A program made the translations under genes and the position numbers. The notes below the pieces were generated by a model. It was not told the DNA's origin. It was given only the letters and a program-made list of their open reading frames with translations, and searched no databases. 42,657 nucleotides of DNA from the sequence record PP925827.1; one strand, written 5' to 3'. Every line of letters begins with the position of its first letter. Within the stretch, counting starts at the first letter, position 1. Shown here piece by piece: positions 29,082 to 30,562 of the stretch. The stretch comes from Escherichia phage Flotzy.

Positions 29082-29186
29082 CGTGTAAATGTTGGGGGTT
29101 ATTCCCCCATTTTTCCCCAATAATTCCCCGTACAGATTTTAAACATGAAAAAACCAGCCGTAAAAGGCTGGTTTTCAATGTGTTTT

Positions 29187-29232
29187 TGGTCGGCACGAGA
29201 GGATTTGAACCTCCGACCCCCGACACCCCATG
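29187..29232 (-). other. attP core: 46-bp 3' fragment of a tRNA-Pro-like gene (T-arm, acceptor 3' strand, CCA)
   Basis: Minus strand reads CATGGGGTGTCGGGGGTCGGAGGTTCAAATCCTCTCGTGCCGACCA; no matching 5' acceptor strand CGGCACG upstream, so a fragment not a gene; adjacent to integrase. Confidence 0.7.
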
Positions 29233-29368
29233 TCACTGCGGTAAAGCCGCTGTAACCCTTGTAAATACTGGTGCTACGGCATGTTTGACTGTATATGCAA
29301 ACAGTGCATTTTTTGCAAAATCCGCACTATATACATCAATGAGTTACGGGTAGGTTTTTCCCCATACA

Positions 29369-30562
29369 TCACCCGGCTTTAAAGACAATTTCAGCATGAG
29401 GAACTTCTACCCATTCAACATGGTTCTGGGTATAAATTTTTGTCGATTTTGCATCACTATGGGCCATCCTTGCCTGCGGATCGATACCTTGTCTTTCGAA
29501 AATATGAGCCGCCAGCGCTCTAATCTCGTGGAAAGTAGGCCTTTCTTTGATAGGTAATTCTGCCGCTACACCTATCCGGTCCCGCAGCTCTGAAAATGCC
29601 CTGCTCAAATAATCAGGGGCCACCTGTGTTGGGTGGTTAACTTCCTTGCTTATCGGATTGCTTCTCTTTTCCAGAAGCCGGTGAACAACATAAGGACTGG
29701 CTACATTGTCTCTGCTGTTGTCGATAATCTCTTTCAGGGCCCTGCCGATCGGAATTGCAACGTGTGAGGCCTCTTTGTGCTGCACTTTTTGCCGATGAAT
29801 GTAAAGCGTTCCGAATATGCCAGCCTCTTCCTGATCGAACCATACACAGCCGCAAACCCCTTCTTGAGGTTCCTTGATCGAGTACCGGATCCGGGAAACT
29901 TCCAGGCGCGCTTGCGTAGTTTGTATTGCAAGGTCCATTGCAGTCTTCAGCCAAGGTTCAGCAGCTGCATGTATGGCCAGGAACTGTTCCAAAGTAAGTC
30001 GCCGGCGGACCTTTTTATCGACACGCCGCATTTTTTTCCGTGTTGCAGGGTTATCCATCATTAGCGATTCATCCACAGCATAAGAGAATAGCTTTTTCAG
30101 GAAGCTAACTTTTCGGTTCTGAACATTGGCCGACGATTCAGAATGGTAATTTCGTATGTAGGCATTTACGTGCTCAAGCTCAATGTCACATGCGGGTATG
30201 TTATTAAAAAATTCTTTAACCCTGATGGCATCATTATTCCAATCGTCAAGTGTGCTTTTAGACGGCTGCTCATCTTTGATCGCTCTCTCCATAATGCGAT
30301 CAACATGTTCAGAAAACGGGTGGGCTTCACCATTCAGCCCTCCAGATTCCCGAATTAATGAATCTATCGATGGTATATTTTCAGGGCGCATCCTCAGGTT
30401 ATACTCTCGGGCGATGGCGATAGCCATTACTCGATCCGAACCGAGAGTTTTCTTTTTCCCAGTTATAAGCGTGAACTTATACACGCCACGATCTTTATCA
30501 AAAAAAAGATAATCAGGAAGGTGGCGGTATTCTTTTTTTCGTGGCCTTGCTGCCATGGTCAA
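29369..30562 (-). CDS. int: tyrosine integrase
   Basis: 397 aa; C-terminal HxxR (HEIRALAAH) and catalytic Tyr region (TKIYTQNH); next to tRNA-derived att core. Confidence 0.9.
   Translation of the reverse strand: MTMAARPRKKEYRHLPDYLFFDKDRGVYKFTLITGKKKTLGSDRVMAIAIAREYNLRMRPENIPSIDSLIRESGGLNGEAHPFSEHVDRIMERAIKDEQPSKSTLDDWNNDAIRVKEFFNNIPACDIELEHVNAYIRNYHSESSANVQNRKVSFLKKLFSYAVDESLMMDNPATRKKMRRVDKKVRRRLTLEQFLAIHAAAEPWLKTAMDLAIQTTQARLEVSRIRYSIKEPQEGVCGCVWFDQEEAGIFGTLYIHRQKVQHKEASHVAIPIGRALKEIIDNSRDNVASPYVVHRLLEKRSNPISKEVNHPTQVAPDYLSRAFSELRDRIGVAAELPIKERPTFHEIRALAAHIFERQGIDPQARMAHSDAKSTKIYTQNHVEWVEVPHAEIVFKAG

Follow-up and report, generated by a model that had tools for sequence, protein, structure and literature searches.

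Attachment sites in which the phage attP overlaps the 3' part of a tRNA gene are a described class (Reiter 1989; Williams 2002; both as reported in 10.1101/2020.11.02.365908, PMC4383910, and PMC9897764). [quoted passage not shown]

The second point of comparison is the integration system of lambda and HK022. Like the system described below, it has an integrase with arm-binding and catalytic domains and a small ORF that abuts int. The likeness extends to the attachment site, where the sequence pattern found here comprises a set of three helically phased repeats on one arm, one or more repeats on the opposite arm, and an IHF-like site. However, the target of lambda and HK022 Int is intergenic, whereas the target of our phage is a tRNA gene. 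Prophages at that gene, proL, are on record for E. coli O121:H19 (PMC8767318), and E. coli 042 carries an 8-kb tRNA-Pro-associated region, ROD34 (PMC2808357). We found no paper on this particular attP in open-access text.

Here we analyse the sequence of Escherichia phage Flotzy (PP925827.1), whose whole stretch of 42,657 nucleotides we call the window. It is a phi80/mEp213/mEp043-like lambdoid siphophage similar to phage LLS. Sequence comparison leads us to conclude with high confidence that the region at 29099-29364 is the attP for the chromosomal proL gene, which encodes tRNA-Pro(GGG), that a lambda-type integrase gene adjoins it, and that it lies in a complete, non-integrated, circularly permuted phi80/mEp213-like genome.

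Results

The fragment is the 3' part of proL

The central part of the site contains three features.

29183-29232, minus strand: block identical in attP and attB, with 0/46 mismatches to proL and with TTTT at 29183-29186 shared with the chromosome
29225-29231, minus strand: complement of the anticodon loop (ACCCCAT), putative 7-bp overlap region, its position read from the sequence
29149-29176, both strands: bidirectional intrinsic terminator hairpin with stem AAAACCAGCC/GGCTGGTTTT, from terminator prediction and RNA folding

An earlier note on this DNA had claimed a 46-bp tRNA-Pro 3' fragment at 29187-29232, and the claim proved exact. The plus strand reads TGGTCGGCACGAGAGGATTTGAACCTCCGACCCCCGACACCCCATG, and its reverse complement matches the 46 nt at the 3' end of proL in E. 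coli K-12 (NC_000913.3) with 0 mismatches. [quoted passage not shown] It comprises the last base of the 5' strand of the anticodon stem, the anticodon loop, the 3' strand of that stem, the variable loop, the T-arm, the 3' strand of the acceptor, and the CCA. The anticodon GGG is the complement of 29227-29229, the T-arm GGTTCAAATCC that of 29201-29211, and the CCA that of 29187-29189.

The note had also held that only the 3' part of the tRNA is present (T-arm, acceptor 3' strand, and CCA), and had named a complete tRNA gene or a match to a different tRNA species as findings that would speak against its reading. We looked for both. Consistent with its view, no part of the window matched the 5' 31 nt of proL, even with up to 10 mismatches allowed. 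ARAGORN found 0 tRNA genes in the whole window, and Rfam returned no tRNA match in 28900-29600 at E<=10 and no family in the whole window at the gathering score, so a complete tRNA at this site was rejected. Sub-threshold Rfam matches (HPnc0260, STnc450, and others) were dismissed because the terminator hairpin and the tRNA-like 3' stem account for them. Other proline tRNA species were ruled out as the source: proK mismatches at 13 of the 46 fragment positions and proM at 11, against none for proL.

Beyond the 46 bp, identity with K-12 continues for 4 nt to the left and 0 nt to the right, and the block common to attP and attB is therefore 50 bp long (29183-29232; the 46 bp plus TTTT). Farther left, weaker homology with the proL locus runs on through the terminator hairpin. 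The earlier note had called the 46 bp the attP core. The fragment itself stands, but the word core is loose, as these 46-50 bp are the block of identity, and strand exchange itself probably takes place in only a small part of it.

By megablast, the block is present once per genome in most of 5426 E. coli genomes, that is, only at proL, with a total of 5753 places in 5427 records. An exact match of 46 bp is too long to be due to chance. Judging from these counts, about 6% of E. coli genomes have a second copy of the block, and in these proL would be occupied by some element.

Relatives are integrated at proL

The fragment lies between a block of DinI, phrog_3893, and UmuD-like genes (28155-29081) and the integrase gene, with phage genes on both sides.

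26802-28085: tail-protein gene
28155-28421, minus strand: DinI-family gene (Pfam PF06183, E=8.5e-23), one of the accessory genes that separate the tail fibre genes from attP
28504-28761: phrog_3893 ORF (phrog_3893, E=1e-41)
28761-29081, plus strand: 'UmuD-like' gene, PHROG 3469 (phrog_3469, E=1e-47), the last tail-side gene before attP
29369-30562, minus strand: integrase gene, lambda-type tyrosine recombinase (matches to PF09003, phrog_1, and lambda Int structures)
30559-30783, minus strand: 74-aa ORF abutting the start of int, candidate excisionase or directionality factor by its xis-like position and size

The E. coli genome CX21 carries a prophage between yejO and yejM, at ~1742116-1787347 of NZ_CP081762.1. 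It is a relative of the window phage and not the same genome, with 98.4% identity in the int module and 94.6% in the att arm. At its yejO end we found, in order, the native proL terminator, the 46-bp fragment, the phage int arm, and int. The other end lies ~45 kb away and there the order is the DinI gene, again just inside the tail-side end, two small genes that take the place of the phrog_3893/UmuD-like pair, the phage tail arm with its terminator, a complete 77-nt tRNA-Pro, and yejM. The rebuilt tRNA at this junction aligns without a difference to K-12 proL. When six sequences were aligned, including attP, the empty K-12 proL locus, and both ends of the CX21 prophage, the flanks were exchanged reciprocally around an invariant block, which is the signature of site-specific recombination between attP and proL. 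The block is invariant in attP, in attB, and in both lysogen junctions.

The same junction pattern is found in NC19, which carries a 16-kb, 80%-diverged, IS2-disrupted remnant at proL. A 78-nt 'tRNA-Pro' is annotated at the int-side junction of remnants of the NC19 type and may be an artefact of the fragment. The int gene is present at >=95% identity in 12 of 5426 complete E. coli genomes (CX21 and 11 others). When one genome per species was scanned, the sole results were Enterobacter wuhouensis and a MAG contig that is probably mis-binned, too few to describe a host range. The arrangement that the earlier note had proposed, an attP between the tail/dinI region and int, is supported by the gene order and by the alignment of attP x attB to attL + attR. 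Its prediction of a proL-like tRNA-Pro target also holds, since proL is where the lysogens carry the prophage, with yejO and yejM as its neighbors, and the fragment has the anticodon GGG.

Could the fragment instead be a relic that no longer serves for integration, either a fossil att site or what is left of a decayed phage tRNA gene? Fossil copies are known, for Gifsy-2 has a truncated and diverged copy of this arm and fragment beside sseI, far from its own att site. Here, however, the 46 nt are perfect, the integrase is intact and retains catalytic residues, no part of the arm architecture is missing, and the block is the exact place at which close relatives are integrated. We therefore regard a relic as extremely improbable and read the site as the attP of this phage.

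The integrase is of the lambda type

The int gene probably starts at the ATG at 30556, which yields 395 aa rather than the 397 aa counted from 30562, and its stop codon lies 136 bp to the right of the identity block. The protein is a lambda-type integrase. Its N-terminal arm-binding domain matches PF09003 Arm-DNA-bind_1 (27.4 bits, cut-off 22), and residues 6-60 align to the N-terminal domain of lambda Int. The catalytic domain scores 26.9 bits against PF00589, 0.2 below the gathering cut-off of 27.1. Among PHROGs it matches the phrog_1 integrases (E=2e-31), and it matches the lambda Int structures 1z1b/1z1g at E ~1e-14. Its HEIR, MAH, and KIY motifs align to lambda H308-R311, H333, and Y342. 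The first catalytic Arg is offset by one, with R219 beside the lambda R212 column, and the catalytic Lys of lambda Int falls in a poorly aligned insertion.

This integrase is annotated as such in CX21 and in Escherichia phage Eeyore. Its close relatives in INPHARED are found only in Eeyore and Phi06_2987, and the next best match, from Alteromonas phage P24, is at 39%. By these comparisons, the int lineage is rare among sequenced phages.

The records of CX21, NC19, and Eeyore list the product of the 74-aa ORF upstream of int as a hypothetical protein. This ORF has no significant Pfam family and no PHROG match; a helix-turn-helix match to DUF4817 is sub-threshold (E=0.016). Its position and size suggest that it may be Xis.

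The genome is complete and not integrated

Eeyore (PP925821.1), which comes from river water and has E. coli as its host, is 97% identical to the window genome over most of its length and is collinear with it through the att site at 97%. The last 250 and the first 250 bases of the window form one ungapped 498-bp stretch in this phage (Eeyore 16942-17439). Since Eeyore joins these two ends without a break, the window is one complete genome in circularly permuted form. It opens with the ATG of a gene that matches the Eeyore 'HNH endonuclease' CDS. The window contains no bacterial DNA or bacterial genes, and four IMG/VR contigs have the same order of tail arm, block, and int arm.

The absence of bacterial DNA from the window, the joining of its ends in Eeyore, and the att junction that Eeyore shares all agree with the non-integrated form that had been proposed. 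The proposed 'vegetative order' was right about the lack of integration but loosely worded, as the window does not start at cos. Collinearity with the mEp213/mEp043 records, which start at the left cohesive end, would place cos near ~6290.

The earlier note had listed a packaged or circular genome and the junction of tandem prophages as alternatives, correctly, as sequence alone does not separate a packaged, circular, or induced genome from such a junction. In the second case, the window would have been cut from a chromosome with two tandem prophages at proL, and the attP-like junction would be their internal join. Such arrays have a possible counterpart in the 84-kb IMG/VR contig 2916441648_000002, which has two int-side junctions, one of which (L028) has the phage tail arm and not host DNA to its left. 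However, the length of the window is exactly that of one genome (42.7 kb; 42.8-45.1 kb in relatives). Its gapless end join in Eeyore and its lack of bacterial genes are what a circularised assembly is expected to give and would be a coincidence for a slice of an array. Moreover, Eeyore, which was isolated as a phage, shares this junction. A tandem array is thus very unlikely, and we favor a complete genome in its non-integrated form.

Eeyore, Phi06_2987 (KM389287.1), and the 12 proL prophages share int (98-99%), attP (97%), and the neighboring genes with the window phage. The tail-fibre region of Eeyore is unlike that of the window (~24.6-28.2 kb) and has an invertase module. The stretches that we inspected of the Eeyore, Phi06_2987, and prophage records have no att site annotation.

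The phage carries its own terminator

The hairpin beside the fragment folds as RNA at -19.5 kcal/mol (z=-6.3). In plus-strand orientation it comes after the UmuD-like gene, and on the minus strand the tRNA 3' end precedes it by ~10 nt. It and the native proL terminator are homologous, with a compensated difference in the stem (CCAGCC/GGCTGG in the phage, CCAACC/GGTTGG in E. coli). The phage version resembles the proL terminator of Enterobacter wuhouensis and several non-E. coli flanks from IMG/VR, and the likeness to Enterobacter-type terminators reaches into the trailer, ...TTTTCA(A/G)TGTGTTTT. These similarities suggest that the terminator-att module has a past in Enterobacter-like hosts and has moved between enterobacterial genera. 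Because the phage carries the exact 3' 46 nt of proL together with a terminator of its own, integration would rebuild an intact, terminated tRNA gene.

Both arms carry phased repeats

The two arms of attP contain the following elements.

29099-29131, plus strand: three tandem 11-bp repeats, TTATTCCCCCA / TTTTTCCCCAA / TAATTCCCCGT, from a repeat search; candidate arm-type Int sites on the tail arm
29288-29306: element ACTGTATATGCAAACAGTG, an imperfect palindrome ACTGT...ACAGT on the int-side arm; candidate accessory-factor or Xis site
29334-29346, plus strand: IHF-like site CATCAATGAGTTA, with 1 mismatch to WATCAANNNNTTR, on the int-side arm
29354-29364, plus strand: fourth repeat copy GTTTTTCCCCA, from a repeat search, just before the int stop codon; candidate arm-type site on the int arm

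The motif WTTCCCC occurs at 4 sites on the same strand within 263 bp, where 0.12 are expected (P ~7e-6 uncorrected, ~1e-3 corrected for scanning the window). It is not enriched over the whole window (19 found, 13 expected), and only the local cluster is significant. The phased triple repeat is also kept in the NC19 remnant, in the Gifsy-2 fossil, and in many IMG/VR tail-side junctions with diverged spacers, and in these diverged copies both its phasing and its distance from the tRNA end are maintained. Other proL prophages have the same layout with TTCACCAT or TTGGAACC instead of TTCCCC.

On the int arm, the single repeat is fixed at +125 from the block in all relatives that we examined. Its sequence varies by lineage, with TTTTTCCCCA / TTTCTCCCCA / TTTTACCCCA in some and TTTCGCCAT / TTTTACCAT in others. 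Three or more lineages, distinguished by their arm motifs, target proL. In the attP-like junction L028, both arms have one motif type. Co-variation of the motif between the arms across lineages is the pattern expected of arm-type Int-binding sites. The TTCCCC repeats on both arms of the window attP look like such sites and are probably bound by the integrase.

Two elements of the int arm do not follow the lineages. The ACTGTATATGCAAACAGTG element stands at a constant distance from the block in all int-arm lineages examined, those with other motifs included. The IHF-like site is the only match with <=1 mismatch in 29000-29400 (0.24 expected), a stretch that has no exact match to the IHF consensus, and all diverged int arms conserve CATCAANNNNTTA where this site lies. 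That both elements are kept across all lineages fits sites for shared host or accessory factors, and IHF may well bind at 29334-29346.

Strand exchange most likely occurs in the anticodon loop

Where within the block are the strands exchanged? One end of the block is the complement of nt 31, the base just 5' of the anticodon loop, and the other lies past the CCA. By this extent, the block belongs to the anticodon-loop sublocation class of Williams 2002. In attP, a partial dyad, GAC/GTC (29222-29224 / 29232-29234), brackets the complement of the anticodon loop. Because identity with attB sets in at the anticodon loop and the published attB class runs from there to the CCA, we infer that strand exchange, which would fall within the 50-bp block, most likely takes place in the 7-nt anticodon loop at the int-proximal end.

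Exchange at the T-loop or at the tRNA 3' end of an otherwise genuine attP would be the alternative. As attP and attB do not differ anywhere in the 50-bp block, exchange could formally occur at any point within it, and T-loop and 3'-end attB classes are described as common in 10.1101/2020.11.02.365908. In those classes, however, identity normally starts at the T-loop or later, and here it starts at nt 31. The partial dyad that attP keeps around the anticodon loop likewise matches the published anticodon-loop-to-CCA class, and all diverged proL lineages share sequence through ...CCCCATG|TCAC. We consider exchange at the T-loop or 3' end unlikely and place it in the anticodon loop.

Natural variants were also surveyed. 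A scan with the anticodon-loop end of the block yielded 9 junctions whose acceptor and T stems have host-type variants, and a scan for the opposite junctions had no contig in common with these 9. Two variant complete tRNAs have stems that are compensated on both strands and are uninformative for the crossover.

Discussion

How would this site function? We propose that the adjoining lambda-type integrase recombines attP with the chromosomal proL tRNA-Pro(GGG). After integration, the host would retain the 5' 30 nt of proL, to which the phage would contribute an identical 3' part of 46 nt and its own terminator, giving a functional proL at the tail-side end of the prophage. The displaced host 3' fragment and the native terminator would come to lie beside int at the opposite end. 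It is probable that the integrase connects core sites in the anticodon stem-loop with the arm-type sites, of which the tail arm has three and the int arm one, and that IHF helps. For excision, the small ORF upstream of int is probably the excisionase.

This temperate phage has an ordinary attP of the tRNA-gene kind, paired with a heterobivalent integrase of the lambda type, and the arrangement is a textbook one. Compared with the class of tRNA-3' attP sites, nothing differs in kind. What is peculiar here is the Enterobacter-type terminator that the phage carries and the lineage of its integrase. The differences from the lambda paradigm are larger. The lambda sites P'1-P'3 adjoin int, unlike the triple repeat of the window, which is on the arm distal to int, and the repeat motif is unrelated to that of lambda. 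The integrase shares only ~25% identity with lambda and HK022 Int, and the window has no recognisable Xis family.

The proL gene is used by other mobile elements as well. Salmonella SPI-12 is located at proL. It shares its chromosomal target gene with the window phage, as do the proL prophages of E. coli O121:H19 and ROD34 of E. coli 042. As a prophage site, proL had already been published (PMC8767318), and the new detail lies in the architecture of the arm repeats and in a conserved attP scaffold with lineage-specific arm repeats.

What does this finding mean for phages of this group? For the window phage, it predicts the host target, proL, which in E. coli lies between yejO and yejM, and it presents the window as a complete, non-integrated temperate phage genome. 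It also supplies exact att coordinates for genome annotation and for the design of attL/attR PCR. More broadly, several related integrase lineages may target proL, all with a single fixed attP scaffold but with arm-site motifs that have been switched, a proposal to which we give slightly less than an even chance. The parts of the scaffold are the triple 11-bp-phased repeat, the phage terminator, the tRNA 3' part, the ACTGT..ACAGTG element, the IHF-like site, and the +125 repeat. If the proposal is true, the proL lineages would be a natural series in which to study the evolution of arm-binding specificity and a possible source of orthogonal, proL-specific integration tools.

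Diversity of proL-type att sites

The attP layout of the window is the same across prophages that target proL with different arm repeats. Comparison of the tail-side junctions of loci L043-L054 and the int-side junctions of L011-L042 yielded at least three types of arm-repeat motif in proL-targeting prophages: TTCCCC, as in the window, TTCACCAT and TTGGAACC. At locus L016, a further triple repeat, TCCGGTG, abuts the block of identity between attP and attB directly, and a terminator is absent. In the proL prophages L043 and L047, which reside in other hosts, the rebuilt tRNA has a variant acceptor stem in which both strands change together (e.g., CGGACTG...CAGTCCG), and the 3' tRNA copy carried by the phage agrees with the variant of its own host's tRNA.

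The terminator that the window carries 3' of its tRNA fragment (29149-29186) was compared with L031, L027, and L030, and is closer to the native proL terminators of Enterobacter-type chromosomes than to that of E. coli. A CCAGCC stem and a ...CA(A/G)TGTGTTTT trailer are common to the window and the Enterobacter-type loci. The nearest relative of the tail arm in IMG/VR, L049, adjoins an upstream flank of non-E. coli type. The tail arm of the window also contains a second small hairpin:

Window 29093-29109, plus strand: TGGGGGTTATTCCCCCA followed by a T-run, directly past the stop codon of the UmuD-like gene

This hairpin has a terminator-like score on the plus strand and overlaps the first arm repeat. 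It is not kept in every relative, whereas the arm repeat that it overlaps is kept.

Annotated and unusual junctions

At the int-side junction of a decayed proL prophage remnant, E. coli NC19 and at least 12 other genomes have a short tRNA gene in their RefSeq annotation:

L002 3043-3120 (NZ_CP076654.1 1681792-1681869): 78-nt "tRNA-Pro" at the int-side junction of the 16-kb remnant in NC19

In NC19, this feature is composed of the displaced 46-nt fragment and unrelated DNA of the phage arm, and ARAGORN called no tRNA there. The 78-nt "tRNA-Pro" of such remnants probably reflects the erroneous annotation of a fragment as a gene, an error class that has been described previously (PMC9897764).

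The 84-kb viral contig IMGVR_UViG_2916441648_000002 has two int-side junctions, L014 and L028. Since the left flank of L028 consists of phage tail-arm sequence (including gtttcaccatt) instead of host DNA, the contig resembles a tandem array of prophages at proL whose copies meet in an attP-like junction inside the array. Another contig was binned into a Geobacteraceae MAG:

L032: DAINBV010000046.1, 44,556 bp

Its very end holds the enterobacterial proL block and an int arm closely similar to that of the window. Because its length is that of a phage genome, the contig is probably an enterobacterial phage or prophage contig that was mis-binned or is a contaminant.

Tail-fibre region and record start

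The main stretch that the window does not share with its close relative Eeyore is the tail-fibre region (24581-28167), which is similar to fibres of the mEp390, HK140, and HK639 type. At this position, Eeyore encodes tail-fibre genes and a DNA invertase, and the proL prophage of E. coli CX21 likewise has a recombinase-family gene. The record (last base 42657) opens at the ATG (1-3) of a gene matching the Eeyore "HNH endonuclease" CDS (17190). This start does not coincide with cos; it seems that the record was rotated to a gene start or that the assembler opened the circle arbitrarily.

A fossil att arm in Gifsy-2

Far from its own att site, Gifsy-2 contains a copy of the window's tail-side arm:

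L033 ~2001-2124 (NC_010393.1 44211-44334): fossil tail-side att arm, downstream of sseI

The arm consists of three CCCC repeats at 11-bp spacing together with the terminator and the 3' part of proL, which is truncated but has ~31 nt intact. These contents suggest that the sseI region of Gifsy-2 came from a phage that integrated at proL.
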